The position numbers were made by a program, and so were the translations under genes. Source: Alphaproteobacteria bacterium (GTDB lineage Bacteria; Pseudomonadota; Alphaproteobacteria; CALKHQ01). From it: a stretch of 64,000 nt of DNA. The notes below the pieces were generated by a model that worked only from the letters and a program-made list of their open reading frames with translations, was not told the origin of the DNA and did not search any database. Positions 1,198 to 13,948 of the stretch are shown piece after piece. The stretch is from positions 3,328,001 through 3,392,000 of the forward strand of contig CBDDFZ010000001.1 in assembly GCA_965227515.1 (NCBI GenBank), in the 5' to 3' direction. How positions within the stretch are numbered: position 1 is the first letter of the stretch; every line of letters starts with the position of its first letter.

Positions 1198-1273
1198 GGG
1201 CCCGTAGCTCAGCTGGCAGAGCACCTGACTTTTAATCAGGTTGTCGCAGGTTCGAACCCTGCCGGGCTCACCA
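1198..1273 (+). tRNA. tRNA-Lys (anticodon UUU), integration target
   Basis: 76-nt cloverleaf: acceptor GGGCCCG/CGGGCTC, anticodon arm CCTGA-CTTTTAA-TCAGG, T-loop TTCGAAC, encoded CCA. Confidence 0.98.
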
Positions 1274-1274
1274 A
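1226..1274 (+). repeat. att core, left copy (49 bp, 3' part of tRNA-Lys)
   Basis: TGACTTTTAATCAGGTTGTCGCAGGTTCGAACCCTGCCGGGCTCACCAA identical to 13900-13948. Confidence 0.96.
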
Positions 1275-1277
1275 CAA

Positions 1278-1290
1278 AATCAATTACTTA
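1278..1290 (+). promoter_or_regulatory. IHF-binding consensus next to the att core
   Basis: AATCAA-TTAC-TTA matches WATCAA-N4-TTR, 3 bp inside the left att repeat. Confidence 0.6.
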
Positions 1291-1359
1291 GACCGAGAAG
1301 CATTTGCCAGCGCGACACGCTTCCTCCAAATAGGTACGACATAGGTCCAGGAGTGCATA

Positions 1360-1635
1360 ATGGCTTTGCAGATGTTTCACATTGGCCCCGACCCTGCAGC
1401 TTTCGGGAACTCTCTCTGGCAGGGTCGGCCCACCAAGGAAGGTGCGCTCATCGCCGCGTCGTCTGCGCAACAGGCCAGAGAGATTGCAGCGGATGCCTAT
1501 GCCGATCCGACGGCAGGCGGCAGGTCACCATGGCTGCAGCCCATCACGACCTTCTGCTATGCGGTGCCATGTGTCGGCCCGATACCCAGCGATCCCGGCA
1601 TCATGGTTGAAGGCTTGAAAAGTCCCGGCCAATAA
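1360..1635 (+). CDS. Hypothetical protein (91 aa), element cargo
   Basis: AGGAG RBS before ATG; followed by a terminator hairpin. Confidence 0.6.
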   Translation: MALQMFHIGPDPAAFGNSLWQGRPTKEGALIAASSAQQAREIAADAYADPTAGGRSPWLQPITTFCYAVPCVGPIPSDPGIMVEGLKSPGQ

Positions 1636-1638
1636 AGA

Positions 1639-1663
1639 GGCCCCGCCGAAGCGGGGCCAGTTT
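1639..1663. terminator. Intrinsic terminator between convergent genes
   Basis: GGCCCCGC-CGAA-GCGGGGCC then AGTTT. Confidence 0.7.
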
Positions 1664-1687
1664 CAAGATGCAAATTTGCGGCTTGAT

Positions 1688-2200
1688 TTACGCGGCGCGA
1701 CGCTTCCGCCCGGCCTCGATGACCTCGTTATCGACCAGCTCGGTATTGTCACCCGGCCCGCGAATGACCAGCGTCTTGCCCTCCGGGATGACCTTGGGAA
1801 TGTAGGTCAGCGGCGGGTCGCGATGCCGGCCCGCATCCATTCGGTAGTGATCGTTGCCGTAACAGTCCTGGTCATAGTCGGGATCGTCCGCTGCCACCGG
1901 GCTCGCTTCACCGCCTTCCTCCTGCCAGCCGCAGTCATCGCACGTCTCGCCCTCCCCTTCGCATTGGGCGCCCTCGTCCTCGCAGTCCTCCTCCACGTCT
2001 TCCAAGTCAGCGTCGAAACCGAACAGGCGTTCCGCGACGCTCCACGGCACGACGATCTCCAGAGTCACGCCATCGTCCGACTGGTCGATGACGTGCCCGG
2101 CGTTGAACATGACGCTTGCCAGGGCCAAGGCATTCTCGATGCCCAGGGACTCTGGAATCGCTGGCGATGTAAGGGATGTGATATGCGTGCCATCAGGCAT
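1688..2200 (-). CDS. Acidic hypothetical protein (170 aa), element cargo
   Basis: Strong AAGGAGGT RBS; D/E-rich middle with several Cys. Confidence 0.65.
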   Translation of the reverse strand: MPDGTHITSLTSPAIPESLGIENALALASVMFNAGHVIDQSDDGVTLEIVVPWSVAERLFGFDADLEDVEEDCEDEGAQCEGEGETCDDCGWQEEGGEASPVAADDPDYDQDCYGNDHYRMDAGRHRDPPLTYIPKVIPEGKTLVIRGPGDNTELVDNEVIEAGRKRRAA

Positions 2201-2277
2201 TGCCGTACCTCCTTCATAGGTCGGTTGTGCTTAGGCCGGGTGGGGTGCTCCAACACCTCGCCCGGCCGGTGGGGAAT

Positions 2278-2772
2278 TCAGATCTTGTCCGCGACCTCGT
2301 TCCACACGTCGCTGGCACCCTCGATGAAGGCGTCAACAAACTCGACGGACACGCCGCTCAAGTGTTCCGGCTCAATGCCGAGAAAGATCGCGACATTCTC
2401 GAAGCTCGCTTCGTCGTCGCTAAACACCTGGCCATACAGCCAAGTTGCAGCGTCATCGCCCTGTCCCATGTCCCAAATGACAGCGCTATCTACCTTGGAC
2501 ATAGCCAGAAGCTCGCGGTAACCGGCGCGCTGGCGAGCCCAATGCATACCATTGGCCTTCCCGCCTTGCCCCTCTTCGGCCTGGTAGTTCTCTTTGCTCG
2601 CACGGAGCCTTGCGATAACATCGTCCATTGATGCGATCTCCTTCACGGTTTCGATGTGTCTGAGCTCGCTCTCGAAGGCCCGCTGGGCTGCGGCTGACCA
2701 GTTTGCAGCTTCGCCGGCCGCGTCCATGCGGGCCTTCATTTCATCGGGAACATACACATTCACTCGTGGCAT
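2278..2772 (-). CDS. Protein with N-terminal ribbon-helix-helix (Arc/CcdA-like) domain
   Basis: MPRVNVYVPDEMKARMD..NWSAAAQRAFESEL pattern; GGAGG RBS. Confidence 0.65.
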   Translation of the reverse strand: MPRVNVYVPDEMKARMDAAGEAANWSAAAQRAFESELRHIETVKEIASMDDVIARLRASKENYQAEEGQGGKANGMHWARQRAGYRELLAMSKVDSAVIWDMGQGDDAATWLYGQVFSDDEASFENVAIFLGIEPEHLSGVSVEFVDAFIEGASDVWNEVADKI

Positions 2773-2790
2773 TCGGTTCCTCCGAACTCA

Positions 2791-2852
2791 GTGTGTGTAT
2801 GTTGGTCCGACTATGCGCATATGTCAAGCGCCGTCACCAAACATACACACAC
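2791..2852. promoter_or_regulatory. Inverted-repeat operator pair around the promoter of the RHH gene
   Basis: GTGTGTGTATGTT (2791-2803) / AACATACACACAC (2840-2852) flank a minus-strand TTGACA (2827-2822). Confidence 0.6.
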
Positions 2853-2865
2853 ACGGGTGCGTTTG

Positions 2866-2888
2866 TCCCACCCTTGGTAAGGGTGGGA
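2866..2888. terminator. Hairpin at the 3' end of the packaging operon
   Basis: TCCCACCCTT-GGT-AAGGGTGGGA directly after the last stop codon; no U-tract. Confidence 0.45.
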
Positions 2889-3086
2889 TCAGTGCACCGT
2901 CCCTGCCGGCGCCTGTAGGGCCTCGACGGCGCGGAGGATACGCAGCCAAGCCGCATGGCCGTCGTCGTCGCCGCGCTGCTGCATCTCTTCGGCCCGCACC
3001 TGTGCCTCAAGTGCGGCGGTGCTGCCAAGGCGCTGAATCAGCAGGTTGGCTGTGCGATAGATGTCCAGGTCACTTGGCTGCGGCAT
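2889..3086 (-). CDS. Small helical hypothetical protein (65 aa)
   Basis: MPQPSDLDIYRTANLLI..WLRILRAVEAL; TGATG overlap with the upstream gene. Confidence 0.7.
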   Translation of the reverse strand: MPQPSDLDIYRTANLLIQRLGSTAALEAQVRAEEMQQRGDDDGHAAWLRILRAVEALQAPAGTVH

Positions 3087-5935
3087 CAGAAGTTCGGCAT
3101 CTCGATATCGCGCTCGTCTAGTATCTGGCGCGCCAATTTCTCGCGCTCGCGTTCCCGTCGGTCGTCGGTCCACGGGACGGTGGACAGGCGCTCCATCTCA
3201 GCAAGTTCGGCCTCCAAGCGCTCCATCTCCTGCGTGTTCAGATACGGGACATTTGACTCACGTTCAGGCGCCTCTTCCTCAACCTCGATATCGGCGCTGA
3301 TACCAACGGCGGCGGCCGCCGCACCAGCGCCGCCAGTCATCGCATCAAGAGCCCCATCAACCAATGCGTCAACCGCGATATCGGCGCCTTGTTCCAAGGC
3401 CTCCTGTTCGTCGACATGCAGCGGCGCAAGGGCCACCAGTTCCTCGGCGGTCCAGGTGCGGATATTGCCTTGCGCATCCACCAGCAACCGCCCAAAGGAC
3501 CGCACGCCCGGCCCGTCGGTTGGCATGACAAGCGCGAAGTTGCCCTGGTGGTTGATCCAGCGTGCCCCGTCAACCCGCCCCGTCCAGGTAGCTCGCATTA
3601 TGCGCTGCTCTACTGGCGACGAAAAGGCGCCATCCAAGAAGTCGGCATAGTAGGTCAGCGGATCAATGGCATGTAACATCTCCCGCGCAACCTGCATGCC
3701 CTCGACGATCTCTTGTCCCTGGGCTCTCGGCACAAACGCGGCGCCGACGGCGGAGTCGATGGGAACCTCGTCCTTGTAGAGAAGATCTATCGCCATCTTG
3801 ATCGCGCGCTCGGCAGGCGTGCTTGTGTCGCCAAAAGCCATCACGCCGATGCTCTGCCCAAAGCCCCCCTCAACCTGCTCGGGCGTGCGGGCCAGGATCG
3901 CAATGGCAAGCTGCGTTGCCGCCGCCTTGTCCTCGTCCGCTATCTCACGCAACAGTTCGGTCGAGCCGACCATGCCCATGAGGTCGGCATAGACATGGCC
4001 GCGTGCAGCCTCGTAGTACGTGTTGACGTCTCGCAACACGTGGTTTCGATCAGCCTCTGACGAATATTGCTCCTTGAAGCGGTCCATCGCCCCGCTATCC
4101 ATGAGCATGTTGGCGATGAATGTGCGCTCGGTGAACGAGTCTGCCGGTGCCGAGACCACGTGACGCCAGAACGGATTGATGCCGGCGTCGATCAGTTGAT
4201 CCATGACCGCCAGTTCCATCGGCTCATCGTCCAGCGCCACCGTCAGGCCCATCAACAACTCGGTCTTGTCGCCCATGTCCTCGGCACGGCGGAAGGTATC
4301 CAGCACGCTGTCCATCATGGCGGCGGGGAATGGCTTCCATTGTTCGGCGTCGGCCGCCAAGGCGCCTTGGCGGCTCCACAGTTCGCGAATGACGGCGCGT
4401 TGCTGCGATGCAGTCCCGCCGTCCGCGAAAGCCGTCGCGAACCGCTCGGCAAGCTCCGGTGACTGCTGCAGCACATAGCCCGGAAGGTCAGCCCCGCGCT
4501 CGCCTAGGATCTTCTGAGCTTGCCCCTGCAATGCCTCGGCGCGGCGCATCCGCGTGGCCAGGTCAGGCCCGCCAGCTTCTAGCGCCGCGCGCTCGTCTGC
4601 GATCATCGCTTCCAGCTCGGCATTCGACATGCCGTGCATGGCCTCGAACTCGCCGGCAAGGCTTCGTGCAGCCTGCAACCCTTCCATCACCTCCGTGCCG
4701 GATGCCGGGTCGAAGCGGTAGGCGCGCATCACCTGGTCGGTCGTCAAGGGATCGGTCACGGGAATGCCGAGTTGCAGCGCCGCGACTTCATCCTCCACCC
4801 GTGCCGCAACGTCGGCCCGCAAGGCGGAGTCCATGTCGAATGCGCGGGCCTCGGCACGGGCATAGAGCCGGTCGGCCTGTTCAGGCGTCAGGCCCTCGAT
4901 CGGCACGCGCTCCGGCAGCATCGGCGCGACAGGCGTCGCGGGCGGCGGTGCCGACTGGACGGGTGTAGACGGCTCGGGCACCGCCAACGCCAGTTCGCGA
5001 AGCTCGTCCAGGCCCTCGGCGGTGTCTTCTACGTCGTTGTTGTCCAACACCCGCGCCAGCTCGCGCACGTAGTCCATTGGCGCGACTGCCTCGCCGGCAC
5101 CGGGCGGGCCACCGGTCTGCACCGCAAACCGCGCGTGATCGCCAAACAACTCGACCGCCCGGTTGAACACCGCAGCGCCTCGTTCGCGGTCGCCAACTTC
5201 GGGCGCATAGACCGTGTCGTCCGGTGGTGCGGCGGCAGGTTGTGGCGGTGCCGTTGGCACGGCGCCATGCGCCTGTAGCCATCCATGCGGGTCGCGGGAA
5301 ATGGCAGCCGAGTGATAGGCATAGCGGTAATCAGCACGCCGCGACTCGAGCAATTCCACGCCAGCCGTGCGCGTGATCAGGCCAGATGAAACCATGCCGC
5401 CGATGGTGAGCCCGATGGTGTCCAGATCGGCCGCCATGTTTGCGGTCGGCATCGAGGCATGAGCCACAAGGTCGTTCAGCGCGGCGGTGGACTGCGCCAG
5501 GTTGTGGTCATCCTCGCGCGCCAATGCCAGGTCACGGACAGCGATGCCAACCCGTCCGACCAGCCCCTCATTGCGGTTGCCGACCGTATCCAGCAAGTCG
5601 GTCTGCAATGCATCCATGACGGTGGGATCGTAGTTCTGTTGCCCCAGCACGCCCGGCAGCGTGGCCCGAAATTCCTCGAACTTCACGGCATAGCTGGCGA
5701 AGTCCTGGTCCTGGTCGAGCTGCTGGAGGAACTGGTCCGACAGATTGCGGATGGTCGCCCTGCCCTCCGACAGTTGCACCGCGCGCAACTGCTCTAGGCG
5801 CTGGTCGACCTCTCCGGTGGCCAGTTCCCCAAACTGCTGCAGCGCTGCACCGCCCTGCCCGAACGATGCCGGGTTGACGGTGGCCGCCCGCCCGGCCTGG
5901 ACCGTCGTGCGCGGCGTGTAGGGAATGATCGGCAT
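3086..5935 (-). CDS. Large helical protein (949 aa), podophage internal virion / DNA-ejection-like
   Basis: Long open frame coupled by TGATG overlaps; N-terminus MPIIPYTPR..NPASFGQGGAALQQFG; Ala/acidic helical composition; function inferred. Confidence 0.55.
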   Translation of the reverse strand: MPIIPYTPRTTVQAGRAATVNPASFGQGGAALQQFGELATGEVDQRLEQLRAVQLSEGRATIRNLSDQFLQQLDQDQDFASYAVKFEEFRATLPGVLGQQNYDPTVMDALQTDLLDTVGNRNEGLVGRVGIAVRDLALAREDDHNLAQSTAALNDLVAHASMPTANMAADLDTIGLTIGGMVSSGLITRTAGVELLESRRADYRYAYHSAAISRDPHGWLQAHGAVPTAPPQPAAAPPDDTVYAPEVGDRERGAAVFNRAVELFGDHARFAVQTGGPPGAGEAVAPMDYVRELARVLDNNDVEDTAEGLDELRELALAVPEPSTPVQSAPPPATPVAPMLPERVPIEGLTPEQADRLYARAEARAFDMDSALRADVAARVEDEVAALQLGIPVTDPLTTDQVMRAYRFDPASGTEVMEGLQAARSLAGEFEAMHGMSNAELEAMIADERAALEAGGPDLATRMRRAEALQGQAQKILGERGADLPGYVLQQSPELAERFATAFADGGTASQQRAVIRELWSRQGALAADAEQWKPFPAAMMDSVLDTFRRAEDMGDKTELLMGLTVALDDEPMELAVMDQLIDAGINPFWRHVVSAPADSFTERTFIANMLMDSGAMDRFKEQYSSEADRNHVLRDVNTYYEAARGHVYADLMGMVGSTELLREIADEDKAAATQLAIAILARTPEQVEGGFGQSIGVMAFGDTSTPAERAIKMAIDLLYKDEVPIDSAVGAAFVPRAQGQEIVEGMQVAREMLHAIDPLTYYADFLDGAFSSPVEQRIMRATWTGRVDGARWINHQGNFALVMPTDGPGVRSFGRLLVDAQGNIRTWTAEELVALAPLHVDEQEALEQGADIAVDALVDGALDAMTGGAGAAAAAVGISADIEVEEEAPERESNVPYLNTQEMERLEAELAEMERLSTVPWTDDRREREREKLARQILDERDIEMPNF

Positions 5936-6312
5936 CAGGGACCGTCGTACGGCTCGACCGTGATGTGCCATGCCGAGACGCGACCGTGATCCTCCGCCTT
6001 CGGCTCGCGACTGGTAACTAGCAGTTGCATGCGGCTGTGAGGCTTCACGCCACCGCGCCAGGTCGGGCTACCAGCCGCGCGGGCCTCGAACTTGCCAGGG
6101 CCGTATAGGCATAGGATTGTGTCGTCGACGTACAGGATTTCGCCATAGGCGCTGTCGAACCAGCCCGGCGCCAGGATTTCCTCCGGCGTTGCGTGCGTCA
6201 TTAGCGTCCAACGCGAGGGGCACGATCCAACTGATTCCGTCCGAACCATGTCTTGCCTGCCCAGGTGAACCGGCGGACGATCTGTCGGCTTTTCGAGCGT
6301 TTTGGTAGTCAT
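5935..6312 (-). CDS. Hypothetical protein (125 aa), possibly capsid-associated
   Basis: ATGA-coupled to the TerL nuclease gene; W-x-x-x-T..EEILAPGWF..LYVDDTI motif. Confidence 0.55.
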   Translation of the reverse strand: MTTKTLEKPTDRPPVHLGRQDMVRTESVGSCPSRWTLMTHATPEEILAPGWFDSAYGEILYVDDTILCLYGPGKFEARAAGSPTWRGGVKPHSRMQLLVTSREPKAEDHGRVSAWHITVEPYDGP

Positions 6313-7055
6313 CTCTTTCTCCGTTCAATGTTGTAGTGCGTAGGCATTGGTCGCCGTCTTTCCGCTGTGCGCGGCTTGGCGAAGCGCAGGCTCATGACGG
6401 CAATGCGCGTTGCCGACAGCAAGTCGTCGGCTTCCTTCACGATCTTCCCGGCCTTGCGGTGATAAAGGCGGAATTCCTCGAACCAGTCGGCCAGGTGCGA
6501 GAACACCTTGAAGCGGCCGGCCTGCATGTATTCCAGCATCTGAGTGATGCCGGCCTCGGTGCCGAAGCCGCCGTCCTCGTGGGTCGCGTGCTCAGGCAGC
6601 ATGTTGAGCCCCCGGCGGCGGTATCCGCCCGCCAGCGCCTCGCCTGAGCCCTTGTCGTGCTGGTGACCGTCGTGCGGCCAGGCCCAGGGCATCGCCGGTC
6701 CCCAGGGCTTGATGGCGTCGACGTGGATGGCCGGAGTTTCCTCGCGCGCCCGATAGCACTGCGCCACGTAGATCACGTCATCGTCGCGGTCCCAGGCCAG
6801 CTTCACGGCGCCGAAAGGATGGTCCCAACCGAAGTCCATGCCACCGATGCAGGCGTAAAAGTCCGGCACCTTGAACGGCGCGCAGGTGATGCCTTCCTCG
6901 GCCACAGGAAAAACCCGGCCGCTGCCCAGCATCGGCACGCCCTTGGCACGGGCTTCGCGCTCGTGGGCGGGGTAGTCCGCAGCGATGCGCTCGCGTTCCT
7001 CCGGGCTGAAATGCTCGGCATCGTCCAGCGTCAGGAAGGTGACGTGTTTCGTCAT
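6309..7055 (-). CDS. Terminase large subunit, C-terminal nuclease half (P22 gp2-like)
   Basis: DDAEH..YPAHEREARAKGVPMLGSGRVF, GMDFGWDHP, WPHDGHQH, FEEFRLYHR, DDLLSATR. Confidence 0.92.
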   Translation of the reverse strand: MTKHVTFLTLDDAEHFSPEERERIAADYPAHEREARAKGVPMLGSGRVFPVAEEGITCAPFKVPDFYACIGGMDFGWDHPFGAVKLAWDRDDDVIYVAQCYRAREETPAIHVDAIKPWGPAMPWAWPHDGHQHDKGSGEALAGGYRRRGLNMLPEHATHEDGGFGTEAGITQMLEYMQAGRFKVFSHLADWFEEFRLYHRKAGKIVKEADDLLSATRIAVMSLRFAKPRTAERRRPMPTHYNIERRKR

Positions 7056-7834
7056 CGGCGCCGCACCCGGTAGTGGCTTGGAAGCGGCTTCGGCGGGATC
7101 TTCACGCCCATCGGGTCGTCATCGGCCTCGGTCCAACCCGGCGGGTCAACCAGTTCGGGTTCGCCCTCGTCCACGTCCTGGTGGATGAAGCCGCGCACCA
7201 CTTCCGACATGCCCAACAGCGGTGTCATCGTCGCCAATGCGATGCCGCGGTTGTCGGATAGCCGGGCCAAGCCCTCGTTGTAGATATCGACGGGCGGTTC
7301 CTCGTCGTACCAAATCAAATGCAGCGCCGCGCCCTGCCACTTCTCGCGGCCCTTTTCATAGGTCTTGAAGCCCAGGATGGATTGGCCGCCGGTCACATGC
7401 TTGATGATCACCTGGTCGAGCGCGTCGGCAACCGTGCGGGCCATCGAGTGCGGCCCCAGGGCATCGCCCGGTATCATCCCCGTGCCCCAGGACGATCTGT
7501 CGGCGGGCGGGCCAATCAGCTTCTCTTGCGGAACGTCGCGCGTGGACTCGGACGTGATGCCGGATGCCCAGGCAACTATCGGCTCGCCAAACCGCTTGCC
7601 CTTCCACCAGTCCGGATATCGGCCAGTCAGGTGCATCGCGACTTCGGCGCCGCCGGCCAGCGTCTTGCCGCATCGATTGCCTCCCAACAGCAAGCGCTCG
7701 CGGTGCTCGGCACCAGCGGCATGGAACTCAGCCTGTTTCGGATAGGGTCGATACCTGGATAGCTTGCGGCGGGCCTTGCGGCGGGCCAGCTCGGCAAGCT
7801 CGGCATCGAGTTCCTTGAGCGCCTCAGCCGTCAT
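7052..7834 (-). CDS. Terminase large subunit, N-terminal ATPase half (P22 gp2-like)
   Basis: YPKQAEFH, Walker A GGNRCGKT, HLTGRYPDWW, Walker B IWYDEEP, coupling motif TMTP. Confidence 0.92.
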   Translation of the reverse strand: MTAEALKELDAELAELARRKARRKLSRYRPYPKQAEFHAAGAEHRERLLLGGNRCGKTLAGGAEVAMHLTGRYPDWWKGKRFGEPIVAWASGITSESTRDVPQEKLIGPPADRSSWGTGMIPGDALGPHSMARTVADALDQVIIKHVTGGQSILGFKTYEKGREKWQGAALHLIWYDEEPPVDIYNEGLARLSDNRGIALATMTPLLGMSEVVRGFIHQDVDEGEPELVDPPGWTEADDDPMGVKIPPKPLPSHYRVRRR

Positions 7835-8258
7835 GTTCGATGACCTTCGCGGCCAGCCCCAACTGACGCATCTTCGCCGCAATGGATGCCTCGATCTGTT
7901 CGTCGGTGCGAGTGTCCATCTGCACCCGCGCGTCTACCCGGTCGACAAGGTGGCCACTCAGCTTGCCCTGCAACTCGGTCGCCTTCACGGCGGCGCTGTG
8001 CTGGCCGGCTTCCCGTGCCGCCTCACGGTCTTCCTTGAGCTGGGTCATCAGCTTGTCGACGGTGAATTCGTTCCGCTTTGCCGTCTCGGCCTGGATCTCG
8101 GCAATGCGAACCTTCACGTCGTCGCGCTTGAGCAACTCCCGCGCCCGGTACCGCCCGCCCCGATAGCCCGCCTGCCGCGCGGCCTCAGCCCCGGAATTCC
8201 CGGCGGCATAGGCAATGGCAAACGCTTCCATGCGAGGATTCCAGCGGTAACGGGCCAT
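7824..8258 (-). CDS. Terminase small subunit
   Basis: HTH AFAIAY..GAEAARQAGY..ARELLKRDDVKVRIAE; SAAVKATELQGKL; directly upstream of TerL. Confidence 0.88.
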   Translation of the reverse strand: MARYRWNPRMEAFAIAYAAGNSGAEAARQAGYRGGRYRARELLKRDDVKVRIAEIQAETAKRNEFTVDKLMTQLKEDREAAREAGQHSAAVKATELQGKLSGHLVDRVDARVQMDTRTDEQIEASIAAKMRQLGLAAKVIEHDG

Positions 8259-8938
8259 CAGCCCAAGCTGCCATCCGCCGGCTTGTCGCCGTACAACCGC
8301 GTCGCCAACCGCATGCCGATATCGGCCAGCCGCTTGGCTTCGTCACGGTCGCCGCGCCTGTTTGCATCTATGGACTGCCCCACAGCCTTCTGACGGGCGC
8401 GCTCCAGCCGGGCACGCTCCGTTGCACTCAATTCCTCGGGTTCCACTCCATCACTCCTTTCACCAACTTCGCCATGGTCGGCGGGGGTTGCGTAGATTCC
8501 AGGCCATGCCGTCTGGCGGCGGGCCGATAGCTCCCGCTTGGCCAGGGCCGACAACAGGCCGACATCCTTGTCCAGCCCCGCCTTCACGCCAGCGTTCACC
8601 AATGCCGGAGGAAGGCTGGACAGGGCGGACTGCACCAACCGGACGTTCAGGTCGTAGTCGCCGCCCCAGGCCCGCTTGAGGTTGCCCGCAAGGGTCGGGT
8701 CCGTCTTGGCGAACTCGGCAGGCGTCGGCACGTCATCGCCCAGCGTGCTGCCCAGGTAGCTCGTCAGGTTGCGCAGCGACTCCGGGCTCTGCCCCTCAAC
8801 GCCAGGCGCAAGCCCAGGTGTCGGGTCGTCGTGCTCGAACTCCGCGAAGTCCTCTACCGGGGCGGGCCTGTCCTCAAGGAACGCCTCGACATCGGCGTCG
8901 ATAAGCGCCTCTTGCGCTTCGGCGGGAATCTCACTCAT
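8258..8938 (-). CDS. Hypothetical protein (226 aa), scaffolding-protein-like
   Basis: Acidic disordered N-terminus, LKRAWGGDYDLNVRLVQSAL..GLDKD core, C-terminal helical hairpin; function inferred. Confidence 0.5.
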   Translation of the reverse strand: MSEIPAEAQEALIDADVEAFLEDRPAPVEDFAEFEHDDPTPGLAPGVEGQSPESLRNLTSYLGSTLGDDVPTPAEFAKTDPTLAGNLKRAWGGDYDLNVRLVQSALSSLPPALVNAGVKAGLDKDVGLLSALAKRELSARRQTAWPGIYATPADHGEVGERSDGVEPEELSATERARLERARQKAVGQSIDANRRGDRDEAKRLADIGMRLATRLYGDKPADGSLG

Positions 8939-9165
8939 CGACCGGCAAGCCGCTTGTTGCGCTCGGCAGGCGTCTCGGTCTTGCCAATGCCGTAGTCAGC
9001 TTCGGCGAAGTGCTGCCGCAGCGGCCCCCTGCCATGGCCGCCAATCAAGCCGTGCAGGCCACCGGCGGGAACGTCCATGCTGACGCGCCAGCATCCGCCC
9101 GGCAGGCCCTGCAACACCTTCATCTCGGATTGGTCGTCAATGACCGCGCACACCAGCTTCGCCAT
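8935..9165 (-). CDS. Hypothetical protein (76 aa)
   Basis: ATGA overlap with the downstream gene, within the operon. Confidence 0.6.
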   Translation of the reverse strand: MAKLVCAVIDDQSEMKVLQGLPGGCWRVSMDVPAGGLHGLIGGHGRGPLRQHFAEADYGIGKTETPAERNKRLAGR

Positions 9166-9167
9166 CG

Positions 9168-9356
9168 TCAGGCCGCCTGCGCCGTGATCGTCACGACACC
9201 TGCCGTGGTGCCGTTCGTGGCGAACTCTTGCGCAATTGTCCGCAGCACCGGGTCACGGTGGCTGGTCAGGTTGTTGTGAACGTCGTACCCCGCGTCCGCG
9301 CTGCCGATCTTTATCGACACCGCGTCAGCCTCGTATCTCACTGTCGTGCTGGCCAT
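9168..9356 (-). CDS. Hypothetical protein (62 aa), first gene of the packaging operon
   Basis: GGAGG RBS before ATG 9356. Confidence 0.6.
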   Translation of the reverse strand: MASTTVRYEADAVSIKIGSADAGYDVHNNLTSHRDPVLRTIAQEFATNGTTAGVVTITAQAA

Positions 9357-9554
9357 GTGGCCCTCCGTACCTATCACGTACCTATTTCTGAGTATGGACT
9401 AAAAACGCCACAAAAACAATGATGAACAACTGATAAAAGGTCAGTCACTCGTTTCCAGTGGCGATGCGAGATGCGCGGCAGGTTGGTTCAAGGCAGTCAT
9501 CGCGCGCGTGGCTCGAAGTGGCTTGCAGAGGCTCTCTCCACGCCATCAGAAACA

Positions 9555-9672
9555 AACCGGACAAGACGGACACAACCGGACATGTCCGCCAAATGTCCGG
9601 AAGCACTGCCAACCGGACAGACAGGACATGGACATAAGTAATGTCCTGTCCTGTCCGGGTGCTTTGTCCGGC
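9555..9672. repeat. GGACA/TGTCC iteron cluster, putative replication origin
   Basis: Six GGACA plus six TGTCC pentamers in about 115 bp, downstream of the helicase operon. Confidence 0.7.
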
Positions 9673-9674
9673 TC

Positions 9675-10001
9675 TCAGAAGTGGAAGTGAGGGTCGTCGT
9701 TGTCGTTTGCAATTTCGGTGCGATGGTCATCGGTGCACTGGCCGGCTGCCGGATTGTGGATGGGCTCGACTTCTTTGTAGTCCTCCAGCTTCCTGGCGTT
9801 GGCGTCCCAGTCTGCCTGGGTTTCCAGGTGCCAGTCTGAGAACATGTCCACGCCGCCGGACCAAGCGGTGCGGTGCTCATCGCAGACGAACACATGCACC
9901 CTTCCCACGTTGAGGTAGCCGTCCGACTTGCCGCAACGAGGGCAGCCGCCGAAATAGTGCTCGGCAGCGTTCGCCATGATCTGGTCGTGTGTCAGTGCCA
10001 T
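9675..10001 (-). CDS. Small putative zinc-binding protein (108 aa)
   Basis: CPRC..CDEH ligand set; follows the helicase gene. Confidence 0.65.
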   Translation of the reverse strand: MALTHDQIMANAAEHYFGGCPRCGKSDGYLNVGRVHVFVCDEHRTAWSGGVDMFSDWHLETQADWDANARKLEDYKEVEPIHNPAAGQCTDDHRTEIANDNDDPHFHF

Positions 10002-10012
10002 CGGTCTTCCCT

Positions 10013-11089
10013 TCATGAAGTCCATGCGTAGTTCCCCCAGACGCCAACCATCCCCTTCTCCTGGAGGCTGGTAAGCGAACGCTTGAAGGCCTTCTGGCGT
10101 GCGTCCTGTCCGTCGATGCCGGCACCTTCGTAGAAGTACGAGCGCCACAAGCTCAGCGTTACGACAGGCTGGTTCATCGGTATGTGGTTGCTGGCTGGCG
10201 CTATCTCGCCTTCATCGGCTAATGCCTTTTTCAACAGATCCAGCGCCACCTTCGCCTGTCCGCGCACCTGGCGGCCGACCGGCTCGGCCTGATAGTCGTC
10301 TTCCTCGACCACGCATGAGGTGAGGTCGTCGCCGTCGTCGTCCACGCCGACCGTGACGGATGCGAGCCTGGAAGCGATCACGTCGCCCTCGGGGCCGTCC
10401 TTCATGTCCTCGACAGTGGCGGTGATGGTTCCGCTGGCGGTGCGCTGCACGGCGATCTGTGCATCGGCTGCGGCGGTCAGGGACGTGTGTCCGCGCGGGC
10501 GGGTGCCATCGATACCGCAGTGATGGACCACAACGACGGCGCAATCGAACGCCTGGCGGATGGCGTCGGCTGCCGCGATGTATGCGCCCATGGCTTCGTC
10601 GTCACGCTCAGAACCGACCAATGAGCGGTTCAGGGTGTCCAGGACGACTGCGACAGGTGGCTGATCCTGCATCTGTGTGCGGATAGCTGGGATCAGGGCC
10701 TCATGCTCCCTGATCAGGTCAATGCGCACCGGAAGCAGGCGGAATGGTACCGGCTCCACCGACTCCGCCAGCTTGACCATACGGAAGGCCTCGGCTCGCA
10801 GATTGAAGCCGTCGGCGCCCTCGAAGGCGCAATAGACCACCGGGCCTTGCGTGACACGCCGACCGCGATATTCCCAGCCCAGCGCCACGTGCATCGCGGC
10901 ATCGAAGGCCCAGAACGACTTGCCGCACTTCGGCGGTCCCCAAACCACCGTCAGTCCGCGCCTCGGCATCAGGCCTTTGATCAAATATTGACGGCCGCCG
11001 CGGGGGCGTAGGGCATCGAACGGCAGCAATGCGAACCGGGGCGGTGTCGCCTTGTCGAAGTCGTCATTCAGATCCCTAAGCTGCTGCAT
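10013..11089 (-). CDS. SF4/AAA_25 (RepA-like) helicase
   Basis: Walker A GPPKCGKS, Walker B VVLDT, VVHH..PRGHTSL. Confidence 0.88.
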   Translation of the reverse strand: MQQLRDLNDDFDKATPPRFALLPFDALRPRGGRQYLIKGLMPRRGLTVVWGPPKCGKSFWAFDAAMHVALGWEYRGRRVTQGPVVYCAFEGADGFNLRAEAFRMVKLAESVEPVPFRLLPVRIDLIREHEALIPAIRTQMQDQPPVAVVLDTLNRSLVGSERDDEAMGAYIAAADAIRQAFDCAVVVVHHCGIDGTRPRGHTSLTAAADAQIAVQRTASGTITATVEDMKDGPEGDVIASRLASVTVGVDDDGDDLTSCVVEEDDYQAEPVGRQVRGQAKVALDLLKKALADEGEIAPASNHIPMNQPVVTLSLWRSYFYEGAGIDGQDARQKAFKRSLTSLQEKGMVGVWGNYAWTS

Positions 11090-11771
11090 CCAACTCTCCC
11101 GCCGGCCACAGTCGTGCGTCGATGCCGGCAGTCGTCAGCTTCAGCAGCGCCTCGGTGTCGTCGGTCAAGGCGCGGTCGACACCCCACAGCTCGTGCGGAT
11201 CGTCGTTCAGCCACACGACGCCAGGGCCATGCACCTGCCTGTGCCATGCCGCGACTGTGCCGTAGACGACCAGCGGCTCGTCGCAGATCAGGGCGCGGTC
11301 GATGGGATCAGGCCCGATGCCGCAGCCCAGGATGCCGGGGAAGCGTAGCCGCAGGTAGGTCTGGCGACTGTTCGGCCTCCACGCTACCGAATTGAGCACC
11401 TCCCCGTGAGGCGAGCGCATCGGGCTGATACACCACAGTTCGGATGGCCGGGTCAGCCGGTCGGACAGAAGGTGGTCGGGGAACGGCGCGTATCGCCCGG
11501 CCCCAACCAGGATGCGGTCAACGCCGATCAGGTCGGTTGCCTTCTGCATCTCCAGCGTGATGGCGTGGGCGCGCAACCGGTCGTTCAGGCCGTAACGCTC
11601 GGCCAGGCGCTGAGCGATGGCCAACTCGTGGTGGAAGTCCACGTCCGGTTGAACATCTGCGGCGAAGGCGGTATGATCAGCGTCGGAATTGAAGCCAGCC
11701 AGCTCAATCCATTCTTCCGCCGCCCCGGTTCCGCCAACCGTGGGCGGCGGTTTCGTATCAAGCTGCGTCAC
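11076..11771 (-). CDS. Hypothetical protein (231 aa) in the primase position
   Basis: Overlaps the helicase start; first gene of the leftward operon. Confidence 0.6.
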   Translation of the reverse strand: MTQLDTKPPPTVGGTGAAEEWIELAGFNSDADHTAFAADVQPDVDFHHELAIAQRLAERYGLNDRLRAHAITLEMQKATDLIGVDRILVGAGRYAPFPDHLLSDRLTRPSELWCISPMRSPHGEVLNSVAWRPNSRQTYLRLRFPGILGCGIGPDPIDRALICDEPLVVYGTVAAWHRQVHGPGVVWLNDDPHELWGVDRALTDDTEALLKLTTAGIDARLWPAGELDAAA

Positions 11772-11783
11772 CCGAAATTCCCT

Positions 11784-11837
11784 GTTGACGTGGCTTCATA
11801 ATGACACCATCATAAGTGGCTTCATTATGAAGTCAAC
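11784..11837. promoter_or_regulatory. Overlapping divergent promoters with a tandem operator
   Basis: GTTGAC..GTCAAC termini enclosing GTGGCTTCAT(A/T)ATGA twice (11790-11804, 11816-11830). Confidence 0.7.
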
Positions 11838-11851
11838 CGGGGAGTTCGTGC

Positions 11852-12346
11852 ATGCCGCCGAAAGACCGGAAAGCCGGTGACCGTGCGACGATCACGTTGC
11901 GCCTGCCGGAGAACATTCGGGCGGAGTTGGAGATAGAAGCCGAACGCTCAGGCGTCTCGATGAACGCGCTGATTACACAGCAGCTTGAGCGCGCGGCACG
12001 AGCCAACAAGGCGCTATCTGCAATGGAACGTGTCACTGGTATGCTCGCAAGGCATCAAGACACAATGCTGAAGGTATTTGATAGCCACGCCGCGCAAATA
12101 AAGCAGCTCAATATTGTTGAGCAAAAGCTATTTAATGTCATAGATATTTGCACTGAAACAATCCACGACTACGAACAAGACATGAGTAGGCGCAATATTA
12201 GCTTCACTCCCGTTGCCGATAGAATTCGCGGTCAGCTGGATATGCTTAAGATATTGGCAGAGACTGTGCACGCGCATTATCTGGAAGAAGAGCGCGCGGC
12301 AAGAAACGAAATGCAGGTCAAGGAAGGTGAGGCGGCCGATGACTGA
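11852..12346 (+). CDS. Arc-family (RHH) repressor with coiled-coil C-terminus
   Basis: ITLRLPENIRAELEIEAERSGVSMNALITQQLE. Confidence 0.82.
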   Translation: MPPKDRKAGDRATITLRLPENIRAELEIEAERSGVSMNALITQQLERAARANKALSAMERVTGMLARHQDTMLKVFDSHAAQIKQLNIVEQKLFNVIDICTETIHDYEQDMSRRNISFTPVADRIRGQLDMLKILAETVHAHYLEEERAARNEMQVKEGEAADD

Positions 12347-12533
12347 TACCGTCATGGATCGCATCGTCCGGGAGCCTGAGGCTCGCCAGATTTCCGGGCT
12401 GTCCCGGTCTCAGCGTTATCGCCTGGAGCGCGAGGGGAAGTTCCCCAAGAAGCGTGCGATCACCGGCAGCCTGTACGGTTACAGGCTCTCCGAGTTGATG
12501 GCATGGGTCGAGGGGCTACCGGAGCGGAACTAG
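12339..12533 (+). CDS. AlpA-family excisionase/regulator
   Basis: RIVREPEARQISGLSRSQRYRLEREGKFPK..YRLSELMAW. Confidence 0.87.
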   Translation: MTDTVMDRIVREPEARQISGLSRSQRYRLEREGKFPKKRAITGSLYGYRLSELMAWVEGLPERN

Positions 12534-13735
12534 CCCCGCTCCATCACCACGACGTTGCCACCGATGCCGAGCAGCTGACGAAGTTTCAAGCCCCACGATT
12601 CCAGCGCCGCCGTCTTTTCGGCCAGGTAGTCGTGCCGATCATAGACCCGCCCGACGCCGACCTCCGTGTGGTTCAGCACACGGTCAACGATGAAGCGCGT
12701 GTGGCCCAGCTTCGTCATGCCGGTGGATGCGGTGCGCCGCAGGTCGTGCGCCCGGAAGTTTGCCACGCCTGACAGGTTCTTGATGGCCTCCGACGCTTTC
12801 GAGGACGCCCGCACGTGCGTGTTCCGGCGGGTTGGCGATGGAAAGACCAGCGCGTCGTCGAGCCCCTGCTGGTCCCGCACGATATCCATGGCGAGATCGC
12901 TCAGCGGCACGATGTGCGTTTTCTTGTTCTTCGTGCGGTCGCCGGGGATGGTCCATTGGTGGGCCTCAAGGTCGACTTCATCCCACCGCATGCCGCAGAC
13001 CTCGTTCGGGCGCTGTGCGGTGACCAGGATCGCTTTCAAGGCTGCGCCGTGGATGCCGCGCACATCGAATGCCTGCCACAGCGCATGGATCTCAGCGTCA
13101 GTGTAGACACGCTCGCGCTCAACCTCGGCGCCTGGCGCCGGCAGCTTGTGCGCCGGGTTGTTCTCGATACCACCAGTGTCGGTCGCCAGCGCCCAGTTGT
13201 ACATCTTGCGCACGACGGCGAGGCACCGGTTAGCCTGATAGGGACCATTCCGCGAGGCGATGGCGTGCAAGCGCTCGTTCACCTCGCGCCGTGCGATATC
13301 TTCCGCCGGGCGCTTCTGCCAGTCGGCGAAATAGGTGTCGAGGATGCGTTTGTCCTCTGCCCAGCTCCGCTTTTTCACCATGGCCCAGCGTTCGATATAC
13401 AGGTCCGCCAGTCCCTTGAACGTCAGGCGGGCGGCCTCGACTTCGGCCCGTGCCTTCGCGGCACGTTTTTCCACGACGGAATCAACGCCCTTCTGCGCCA
13501 AGCCTCTTTTCTCGACGGCCATCTGGCGAGCATCTTTAAGACCAATCTCCGGGAATGTGCCGAAGGTCTCGCGGCGCTGTTTGCCGTTCACTGCATATCG
13601 GCAGAACCATGCGACCCGACCGCCGGGACTGACACGGACACCAAGACCGCGCGTCTCGGTATCGAACCAGTCGACCTGCCCTTCGCCCGGCTTCAGACTT
13701 TCCAGCCAACGGGCCGTAAACTTATGCTGCGCCAT
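12530..13735 (-). CDS. Tyrosine integrase (P4-like, with arm-binding domain)
   Basis: Arm-binding domain DTETRGLGVRV; catalytic TAQR, TKN, HDLRRT, LNH, VY. Confidence 0.96.
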   Translation of the reverse strand: MAQHKFTARWLESLKPGEGQVDWFDTETRGLGVRVSPGGRVAWFCRYAVNGKQRRETFGTFPEIGLKDARQMAVEKRGLAQKGVDSVVEKRAAKARAEVEAARLTFKGLADLYIERWAMVKKRSWAEDKRILDTYFADWQKRPAEDIARREVNERLHAIASRNGPYQANRCLAVVRKMYNWALATDTGGIENNPAHKLPAPGAEVERERVYTDAEIHALWQAFDVRGIHGAALKAILVTAQRPNEVCGMRWDEVDLEAHQWTIPGDRTKNKKTHIVPLSDLAMDIVRDQQGLDDALVFPSPTRRNTHVRASSKASEAIKNLSGVANFRAHDLRRTASTGMTKLGHTRFIVDRVLNHTEVGVGRVYDRHDYLAEKTAALESWGLKLRQLLGIGGNVVVMERG

Positions 13736-13899
13736 GTCTGCCTCCGCGATAGGTACCTCATAGGTACAGACAGGACATGGCACGCACCGGCACGCATTGC
13801 AACAGCACGAAACACAACGAACCGATAACATATTGACATATAATGAGAAAAAACTCCACACGCGAGACAATCAGAAACACACCGAAACATGACCTCAAA

Positions 13900-13948
13900 T
13901 GACTTTTAATCAGGTTGTCGCAGGTTCGAACCCTGCCGGGCTCACCAA
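13900..13948 (+). repeat. att core, right copy (truncated tRNA-Lys)
   Basis: Exact 49-bp copy of 1226-1274; 5' half of the tRNA is absent. Confidence 0.96.

Follow-up and report, generated by a model that had tools for sequence, protein, structure and literature searches.

The DNA analysed here, called the window throughout, is a stretch of 64,000 nucleotides from an alphaproteobacterial genome of the order CALKHQ01 (assembly GCA_965227515.1, contig CBDDFZ010000001.1, positions 3,328,001 to 3,392,000). At 1226-13948 it carries an integrated element that combines an integrase, regulators and a replication module with a coupled operon encoding a small terminase (TerS), a large terminase (TerL) divided over two genes, and a large internal virion protein of 949 aa, and in which no capsid, portal, tail or lysis gene is recognisable. 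With a probability of about 60%, judged from comparative genomics, this element is an integrative phage satellite, or a satellite-like mobilisable island, descended from a temperate T7-like podophage, and it is a probable candidate for a new family of phage satellite. Excision, dependence on a helper and transfer are the behaviour that its sequence would predict.

A satellite is favoured over a prophage remnant because the small operon protein p125 and the size of the element have been kept across deep divergence and with other integrases and tRNA targets, and because the attachment repeats are exact, the coupling of the operon is intact and its genes are under purifying selection. These points are documented below, together with the evidence that weighs on the other side.

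Architecture of the element

The attachment (att) sites are exact direct repeats spaced 12,674 bp apart, in agreement with the original prediction, which had also given this value as the size of the excised circle, and the left copy overlaps the 3′ end of a tRNA-Lys gene. Pfam and PHROGs scans covered the 19 open reading frames (ORFs) of the element and a PADLOC scan covered 10 of its proteins; the integrase, AlpA and helicase genes announced beforehand were confirmed. The features, in window coordinates, are the following.

1198-1273, plus strand: tRNA-Lys (ttt), the integration target and the sole tRNA of the window (ARAGORN), its 3′ end rebuilt by the left repeat
1226-1274: attL, exact 49-nt direct repeat (repeat search)
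1639-1658, minus strand: terminator-like GC hairpin with a T-rich tail, just past the last leftward gene (consensus scan only)
1688-2200, minus strand: p170, acidic, no match in Pfam, PHROGs or PADLOC; an ORF of the sister element described below is 95% identical (ORF list, comparison)
2278-2772, minus strand: p164, no family match; over its first 79 residues it shares 54% identity with an ORF in the corresponding end position of the distant island G354a
2889-3086, minus strand: p65, 65 aa (probable start), final coupled gene of the operon, TGATG overlap with the 949-aa gene (junction reading)
3086-5935, minus strand: predicted internal virion (ejectosome-type) protein of 949 aa, all-helical, start ATG at 5935 (homologues, fold model)
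5935-6312, minus strand: p125, small family-specific protein, always positioned between the terminase genes and the large protein (comparison)
6309-7055, minus strand: TerL-C, end of the ATPase domain (lid) plus RNaseH-like nuclease (Terminase_6C 1.3e-22; Terminase_6N 163-213; phrog_5653 8.8e-28)
7052-7834, minus strand: TerL-N, ATPase core (Terminase_6N 2-154; phrog_31467 2e-48)
7824-8258, minus strand: TerS (Terminase_2 3.5e-7; phrog_51; solved small terminase 21di_E 1.7e-10)
8258-8938, minus strand: p226, helical with disordered parts, its C-terminal helix hairpin modelled with confidence (fold model; homologue in the G003 element 27% identical)
8935-9165, minus strand: p76, small ORF of uncertain coding status (dN/dS, the ratio of non-synonymous to synonymous substitution rates, 0.9 on 12 differences from the sister)
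9168-9377, minus strand: p69, first ORF of the packaging operon (junctions, sister comparison)
9555-9673: iteron-like cluster, candidate replication origin, three direct and two inverted copies of the AACCGGACA type
9675-10025, minus strand: small ORF behind the helicase gene, no family match; longest form 157 aa from GTG at 10148
10013-11089, minus strand: AAA_25 (RepA/DnaB-like) replicative helicase (AAA_25 4.6e-33; phrog_2850, phrog_906)
11076-11771, minus strand: p231, first gene of the replication operon, no family match; its counterparts in the sister and the G003 element are 73% and 33% identical
11785-11836: promoter-like sites in divergent orientation, with a 19-nt inverted repeat (11791-11809 and 11817-11835), candidate switch or operator (consensus matches only)
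11852-12346, plus strand: ribbon-helix-helix (RHH) regulator (HicB 1.2e-5; Arc, FitA and CopG below cut-off; Arc-like PHROGs)
12339-12533, plus strand: AlpA-type excisionase or regulator, probable start ATG at 12339, longest ORF from TTG at 12213 (Phage_AlpA 2.2e-13; phrog_2790)
12530-13870, minus strand: tyrosine integrase, probable start ATG at 13735 (Phage_integrase 5.9e-20; Arm-DNA-bind_3 1e-15; phrog_1 1.1e-60)
13900-13948: attR, exact 49-nt direct repeat (repeat search)

The packaging genes form one operon, joined by overlaps or very short gaps as had been predicted. Direct reading of the junctions shows nine genes translationally coupled from p69 (9377) down to 2889, in the order p69, p76, p226, TerS, TerL-N, TerL-C, p125, the 949-aa protein and p65, and the successive junctions are TGAcgATG, ATGA, TGATG, an 11-nt overlap, ATGA, ATGA, TGATG and TGATG. 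TerL-N is likely to start at ATG 7834, the longest ORF opening at TTG 7882.

The claim that terminase genes and a head-interior protein occur here with no recognisable virion shell, portal, tail or lysis gene held up. Among the 19 ORFs, Pfam and PHROGs matched no capsid, portal, head-tail, tail or lysis family, no protease, head-tail adaptor or connector family, and no Sid, Psu, Delta, epsilon-type hijack gene or alpha primase. The 949-aa protein is the only ORF product of portal length, and outside the replication module only p226 is, besides it, of capsid-like length; the folds of both are all-helical, and neither gives a capsid or a portal. The 949-aa protein was considered as a hidden portal or capsid and rejected on its all-helical model and its structure matches in PDB and BFVD. 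By Pfam, PHROGs or tblastn, portal, scaffold, capsid, tail tubular A and B and fibre genes were detectable elsewhere in the genome and in the related prophage G354b.

In the regulatory and replication module, the protein originally taken for an Arc repressor proved to be an RHH regulator; its Arc match (8.8e-4, 19.5 bits) falls under the Pfam cut-off of 20.4 bits, and it is therefore named an RHH regulator only. Between this gene and p231, consensus scans place the divergent promoter-like sites and the 19-nt palindrome, both of them pattern matches. The iteron cluster of the original prediction was confirmed as iteron-like: all three exact copies of AACCGGACA in the 64-kb window lie at 9555-9619, and two inverted copies with one mismatch each follow at 9652-9673. 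As p231 has no Pfam, PHROGs or PDB sequence match, no primase was identified beside the AAA_25 helicase and these repeats. None of the 10 proteins scanned with PADLOC, among them p170, p164 and the ORF at 9675-10025, had a match.

The G+C content of the element is mostly 0.60-0.66, peaking at 0.66-0.68 in 4001-5500 and falling to 0.56 in 11501-12500, and the DNA further to the right is at about 0.65-0.71. The element as a whole had zero matches in a plasmid collection. In the genome G001, from a second genus, a gene of the left flank and a gene of the right flank lie on different contigs, which precluded a clean attB comparison. At window position 1933, within the p170 gene, the contigs of a source-like sequencing run have a 21-nt insertion relative to the window, equal to the 176-aa version of the sister element, and two sequencing runs of a second study contain identical short pieces at 2-3x (contigs).

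Two-gene terminase and internal virion protein

The large terminase is interrupted by a stop and a restart that separate the ATPase core (…GMSEVVRGFI) from the lid (VTFLTLDDAEH…), as placed by alignment against the undivided TerLs of Xfas53, Hennie, RHph_N2 and Baldr, and TerL-N continues 39 residues past the break before its stop codon. In the podophages Xfas53, Ralstonia phages Hennie and Firinga, Rhizobium phage RHph_N2 and Pelagibacter phage Baldr, TerL is a single gene of about 470 codons with the same Terminase_6N/6C arrangement, to which TerL-N is 41-55% identical. PHROGs assigns the two halves to distinct families. Among 79 GTDB loci that encode both halves, the gene is whole in 71 and split at the same junction in eight (L015, L016, L017, L028, L036, L041, L045 and L046), from metagenome-assembled genomes (MAGs) of several phyla; most of the split loci continue with ORFs of about 700, 290 and 330 aa, which by size alone would be portal, scaffold and capsid, and several are apparently full phages. 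In L017, the two halves are 7.9 kb apart with opposite-strand genes in between. A tblastn search with a few portal and capsid queries gave no hit in 36 of the 70 TerL loci having at least 5 kb downstream, though several of these have portal-sized ORFs.

The TerL resident at another place of this genome (locus A, below) and its counterpart in G001 are split at the same position. In a quick tree, the two satellite TerLs fall with the resident TerLs and three MAG loci, all of them split, in a weak grouping with a Shimodaira-Hasegawa-like approximate likelihood ratio of 80, and mapping the split on the tree requires at least 2-3 changes. On these comparisons, the two-gene TerL is a trait of a lineage, also present in full phages, rather than damage, and is functional in kin. 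The possibility that the split marks a frameshift pseudogene was rejected on the alignment and on the shared junction in kin loci and resident clusters. The original description of a split TerL thus stands as regards the two genes and falls as regards a peculiarity of this element.

One further property of the two chains was spotted post hoc. The tail of TerL-N, KPLPSHYRVRRR (window 7052-7090), resembles the C-terminal tail of TerL-C, RPMPTHYNIERR (6309-6350), both on the minus strand, with a local score of 47 against 19.1 ± 3.6 in 2000 shuffles, none of which equalled it, and with no similarity at the DNA level. Since TerL C-termini bind portals in lambda and T3, both chains may, speculatively, carry a docking tail.

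The 949-aa protein is identified, from its homologues and a fold model, as an all-helical internal virion protein of the podophage ejectosome type. Its AlphaFold model, built on a nine-sequence alignment, has a mean predicted local distance difference test score (pLDDT) of 74 and is almost wholly helical. In the PDB structure search, no match reached E ≤ 0.001; the best was the T7 DNA ejectosome tunnel chain 7k5c_A (E 2.6e-3, probability 0.95, template modelling score 0.14-0.19), and the list also holds two T7 core protein entries and a PhiM1 ejectosome entry. BFVD, a collection of predicted viral structures, gave 51 matches at E ≤ 0.001, and the named ones among the matches listed are phage proteins of 700-1200 aa with GH108, SLT, SleB or lysozyme domains; the matches listed also include entries named "internal virion protein" from phages of Aeromonas, Curvibacter and Providencia, and one named "structural protein" from the Vibrio phage phiVC8.

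A HMMER search of 1.84 billion representative sequences recovered 16 proteins at E ≤ 0.001, the query included, with 38% full-length identity for the best relative. Around residues 250-440, six of the 11 relatives scanned have a peptidoglycan hydrolase domain, of changing kind (Peptidase_M15 in P0002 and P0006, SLT in P0008, P0011 and P0014, Phage_lysozyme2 in P0012), and five carry none. The 949-aa protein has a P/A-rich linker where these relatives hold the domain, and no Pfam domain was found in it, thus no recognisable hydrolase domain. A helical frame with interchangeable lysin domains in the relatives gives the family the look of the virion-borne, envelope-crossing proteins of podophages, of which T7 gp16, with its peptidoglycan hydrolase domain, is the textbook example. 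T7 gp15 and gp16 and ORF14-16 of phage Ab31 are likewise large helical proteins, and the swapped hydrolase domains of the relatives recall T7 gp16.

A profile of the 949-aa family matched a gene between tail tube B and fibre in prophage G354b (2.4e-27) and a gene of island G354a (3.5e-44). Across 401 genomes of the class, a set that here and in the tallies below includes two unpublished genomes (G043 and G242) on which no individual claim depends, the profile search was dominated by host SLT enzymes, and true loci of the family were limited to G354, with two, and G003. With the family alignment, a PDB sequence search returned an SLT domain match only and a metagenome scan no relative, and scans of viral contigs with P0002 and P0003 returned nothing. 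P0002 is encoded on a contig of 38.7 kb and P0003 on eight contigs of up to 13.5 kb. Position sets the element apart from phages: their internal virion genes lie past tail tube B and before the fibre gene, about 12 kb from TerL, while here, in contrast to T7 and Ab31, such a gene stands directly behind TerL and p125, and capsid and tail genes were not found.

The 226-aa protein had been described as scaffold-like, which amounts to a lead: a language-model search gave "putative scaffolding protein" at 0.89 and T7 capsid assembly protein at 0.87, and the fold, modelled from a single sequence at low confidence (pLDDT 54.6), consists of helices and disorder with no other secondary structure. For p125, a PDB sequence search gave no match.

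Related elements, resident phage genes and competing explanations

A search for att-bounded elements with the same gene order, as the original prediction had proposed, was successful twice. The loci compared in this section are located as follows.

Sister element: L010:5477-17932 (G000:C1:1750477-1762932)
Locus A region, including an RTX ORF: L011:12585-19665 (G000:C1:2632585-2639665)
Locus B: L097:11788 to L098:3570 (G000:C1:2951788-2963570)
Counterpart cluster in G001: G001:C2:36944-72275
Capsid-less tRNA islands with two or three large internal virion genes: L111 and L112 (G354:C1:871927-888486), L123 and L124 (G371:C3:36873-55577)

BLAST of the element against its own genome revealed a sister of 12,400 bp, bounded at a tRNA-Phe gene by exact repeats of 56 nt. 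Between 5929 and 9366 the two are 95.5% identical (at the protein level, TerL-C 100%, TerL-N 98.9%, TerS 97.9%, p226 96.5%, p69 98%, p76 92%), and identity is 95% for p170, 79% for p125, 73% for p231 and 23% for the helicases; the integrase of the sister has no match to that of the window. Behind p125, the sister has another large protein of 848 aa, which is not alignable to the 949-aa protein, belongs to phrog_684, "virion structural protein" (5.6e-161), and is about 25-31% identical to Ab31 ORF16 (31%) and a Pelagibacter podophage "internal virion protein"; it has no PDB sequence match. The sister also holds a 200-aa ORF resembling an Asp protease. Some 4.4 kb away, at L010:1-1035, lies a tandem array with a 54-nt period (12 overlapping 270-nt copies, 30 copies of a 45-nt unit), which probably encodes a repetitive protein.

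Comparison with the sister shows purifying selection on the shared packaging genes: dN/dS is 0.20 for p226, 0.10 for TerS, 0.16 for TerL-N and 0.16 for p125 (dS 0.83, 79 differences), and none of the three changes in TerL-C is non-synonymous. A ratio of about 1 across the operon, which the original prediction had named as a reason to abandon it, is not what these genes show, p76 (0.90, 12 differences) being the only one near that value.

The second relative was found in G003, from another genus of the same family, and is 12,620 bp long, with exact 49-nt repeats at a tRNA-Thr gene. Its genes follow the same order (integrase 58% identical, AlpA 48%, p231 33%, p226 27%, TerS 48%, p125 39%), and it also encodes a D5-type (D5/P4-alpha-like) primase-helicase, a 1081-aa protein and one of 518 aa with an N-terminus similar to that of the 949-aa protein (25%). 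TerS is present and no TerL was found in this element, so an own packaging motor, which had been put forward as the hallmark of the element, is a feature of the window and sister elements, two of the three core members, and not of the whole family. The three elements, at 12,400, 12,620 and 12,674 bp, differ by at most 274 bp, despite other integrases, tRNA targets, helicases and large proteins. Homologues of p125 occur in two of the four genomes of the order and two of the 401 of the class; a metagenome scan with the p125 alignment gave no relative, and for p125 and p226 none was found outside this genome in a 5.8-billion-protein collection, in 50,697 phage records or in 80 TerL loci.

More distant islands share the internal virion proteins. 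Island G354a (16,495 bp, exact 65-nt repeats, tRNA-Ala) has an integrase, a Prim-Pol/AAA_25 replicase, a p164 homologue and three consecutive large internal virion proteins of 934, 557 and 857 aa, with no TerS, TerL, capsid, portal or tail hit; beside it, in the same genome, lies G354b, a complete T7-like prophage with portal, scaffold, capsid, tail A and B, three large internal proteins and fibre. The family phrog_684 is present in 14 of the 401 class genomes, and of 11 contexts fetched, seven have capsid, portal or tail genes nearby and four do not: a 7.3-kb contig, a broken gene, a low-G+C contig and G371. In G371, internal virion genes lie inside 62-nt repeats 18,643 bp apart at a tRNA-Glu gene; no integrase was identified with the queries used, and there was no terminase, capsid, portal or tail hit. 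Taken with G354a, these contexts show that large internal virion proteins are normally phage genes and in a minority of cases reside in capsid-less tRNA islands.

The genome of the window also has scattered T7-like particle genes. Locus A (C1:2632585-2638508) comprises DUF6456, the two-gene TerL, a portal, a 97-aa gene and a scaffold-like 290-aa gene; locus B, 318 kb away, comprises a major head protein (phrog_3437, 2.3e-78), tail tubular A and B, a small internal virion protein and a fibre. In G001, these genes recur with order and strand unchanged (42-80% identity), scaffold and capsid being separated by about 18 kb. Neither locus yielded a recognisable large internal virion protein, and no integrase was seen adjoining their genes. 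Directly behind the scaffold-like gene, in the position of a T7-like capsid gene, stands a 379-aa ORF (L011:18526-19665) with seven stretches of RTX calcium-binding repeats (2.6e-45), followed by two ORFs of about 560 aa with no assignment. The set may be a domesticated particle resembling a gene transfer agent (GTA) or an old, rearranged prophage, and its portal, scaffold, capsid, tail tube and fibre genes are possible helper parts. Phage_portal, P22_portal and HK97-type Phage_capsid gave no match in this genome, and Head-tail_con is the sole portal family found. The P22/BPP-1 type of helper proposed originally gives way to a T7-like one, since T7-like is the type both of the internal virion protein families and of the only capsid, portal and tail genes resident in the genome.

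For a satellite, the genes suggest the following cycle. A helper, which could be a T7-like podophage that infects or is induced or else the T7-like particle genes of the host genome, would lift RHH repression, after which AlpA and the integrase would excise the 12.67-kb circle, to be replicated from the iterons by p231 and the helicase. TerS from the late operon would recognise the element's own DNA, and the two-chain TerL motor would dock on the helper's T7-type portal and fill its procapsids, possibly with p226 as an alternative scaffold; the 949-aa protein would join the capsid core and later contribute to the channel for DNA delivery into the next cell. At 12.4-12.7 kb, the elements are about one third the size of the 35-46 kb genomes of most related podophages listed, which fits small capsids or headful packaging of about three copies; the same ratio is known for P4 and P2 and for the Staphylococcus aureus pathogenicity island (SaPI) and 80alpha.

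Several findings weigh against a satellite. No excision product, helper or transfer was observed, the sequencing data being contigs and blind to rare circles. An integrated T7-like prophage stripped of its portal-to-tail genes would have the same gene order, which makes an origin by deletion plausible; from the collinearity with the integrated form of Ab31, as deduced from the genome map of that phage, descent from such a phage by deletion is likely. The sister comparison of TerL involves few substitutions (3 and 12), and the near-identity may reflect recent gene conversion. No TerL was recognised in the G003 relative, so members of the family can do without a motor of their own, and the core family is narrow, comprising three elements in two of the four genomes of the order, with p125 in two of the 401 class genomes. 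Compared with the TerL halves of locus A, those of the satellites reach an identity of only about 60%, and hence a fit with the resident portal cannot be assumed; the hydrolase domain of six of the 11 relatives is missing from the 949-aa protein; and the scaffold idea for p226 stands on the 0.89 language-model lead and the low-confidence fold.

These observations bear differently on the competing explanations. That the elements are defective remnants of a T7-like podophage that lost its portal-to-tail genes, carried as inert passengers or kept for integration or immunity and immobile, is unlikely. Such remnants would account for the collinear succession of integrase, regulators, replication genes, TerS, TerL and internal virion protein in the inferred integrated Ab31-type phage, for the like order of structural genes in G354b, and for phrog_684 proteins adjoining capsid, portal or tail genes in seven of 11 genomes; contigs contain no att excision joint, which is uninformative either way because contigs cannot reveal rare excision. 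They would leave unexplained why the repeats are exact in all three elements, why three sizes agree within 274 bp in spite of so much exchange, why the junction gene p125 is kept at 39-79% identity with dN/dS 0.16 at dS 0.83, and why coupling is intact with no stop or frameshift seen apart from the lineage-wide two-gene TerL. A different role, in which the terminase and a hydrolase-less internal virion protein act as decoys that poison assembly or ejection of T7-like phages to the benefit of the host, is very unlikely: two reports describe satellites as often disturbing helper packaging (10.1101/2024.04.22.590561, 10.1101/2022.09.08.507074), the 949-aa protein lacks the hydrolase domain of six of 11 relatives, and internal virion proteins occur in islands G354a and G371, where no terminase was hit, but PADLOC matched none of 10 proteins, and interference leaves the conserved size, the iteron replication module and the selection on TerS and both TerL halves unexplained. 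In known satellites, moreover, interference and transfer are compatible with each other.

The resident genes raise two further possibilities. The 12-kb units might be movable cassettes of a dispersed, domesticated GTA-like system, giving TerS, TerL and ejection proteins to the host's T7-like particle genes, in keeping with two loci 318 kb apart whose order is conserved in G001 at 42-80% identity and with the want of a recognised large internal virion protein in both; this is scarcely probable, given that locus A already owns a two-gene TerL, that the elements own integrases, att sites and replication genes, and that, unlike a host-maintained system, they are missing from two of the four genomes of the order. 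The elements may instead be satellites of a domesticated GTA-like T7-type particle and not of a free phage, a distinctly unlikely case in which they would supply precisely the parts missing from that particle for selfish transfer: a sequence-specific TerS and the matching two-chain TerL, and large internal proteins to carry double-stranded DNA to the recipient cytoplasm, where the integrase would act.

If the satellite interpretation is true, the element contributes a whole motor together with an ejection protein and relies on its helper for shell, portal and tail, a different division of labour from that of known satellites, and the range of satellites would widen to include podophage helpers and an order of alphaproteobacteria that has been poorly sampled. 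The questions that it opens are which terminase a portal accepts and whether the make-up of the ejectosome decides whose DNA reaches the cytoplasm. The natural two-chain TerL, kept in full phages, is a ready system for separating the ATPase core from lid and nuclease, and the scattered but conserved T7-like structural genes are possibly a new GTA-like system.

Comparison with known satellites

Known satellites redirect the helper terminase through TerS, as phage-inducible chromosomal islands (PICIs) do, build their own heads, as capsid-forming PICIs (cfPICIs) do, or reshape helper capsids, as P4 and SaPIs do. P4 encodes no terminase and uses cos sites and the terminase of its helper. The element resembles P4-like satellites in having about one third of the presumed helper genome, in its tRNA insertion, in its P4-type integrase (Arm-DNA-bind_3) and, in the G003 relative, in the D5/P4-alpha-like primase-helicase; it differs in that Pfam and PHROGs found no Sid, Psu or Delta-type match in it. 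Nor does it resemble an intact T7-like podophage, as portal, scaffold, capsid, tail tubular A and B, fibre and lysis genes were all missing from the Pfam and PHROGs results. In the portions of the full-text literature covered, no satellite with an internal virion or ejection protein was found, and the broader literature returned the known satellite families.

The common gene set of PICIs consists of integrase, regulator, primase and TerS, and the cfPICI core differs from it by terL, a head-tail adaptor and a connector, with capsid, HNH and protease genes as well, as set out in PMC10085698. Measured against those definitions, and as had been predicted, the gene set fits none of PICI, cfPICI and P4. 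It resembles a Gram-negative PICI in being an att-bounded island of about 12 kb, within the range of about 10-15 kb, with a terminal integrase, an AlpA-type regulator beside the RHH protein and a TerS, present as a Terminase_2 match, that would redirect packaging, and in that no capsid, tail or lysis gene was found. For the primase or replicase module of PICIs, its counterpart is the AAA_25 helicase with the iteron-like repeats, in which no primase was recognised. PICIs have no TerL and no virion structural genes, whereas this element has a complete two-gene TerL and a large virion-internal ejection protein, its presumed helper is a T7-like podophage, its host is alphaproteobacterial, and p125 and p226 are without homologues in phage records. 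With cfPICIs it shares TerS and TerL in company with integrase, regulator and replication genes, and it differs from them in having no capsid, adaptor, connector or protease match; cfPICIs steal tails only, whereas this element would need the shell, portal and tail of its helper.

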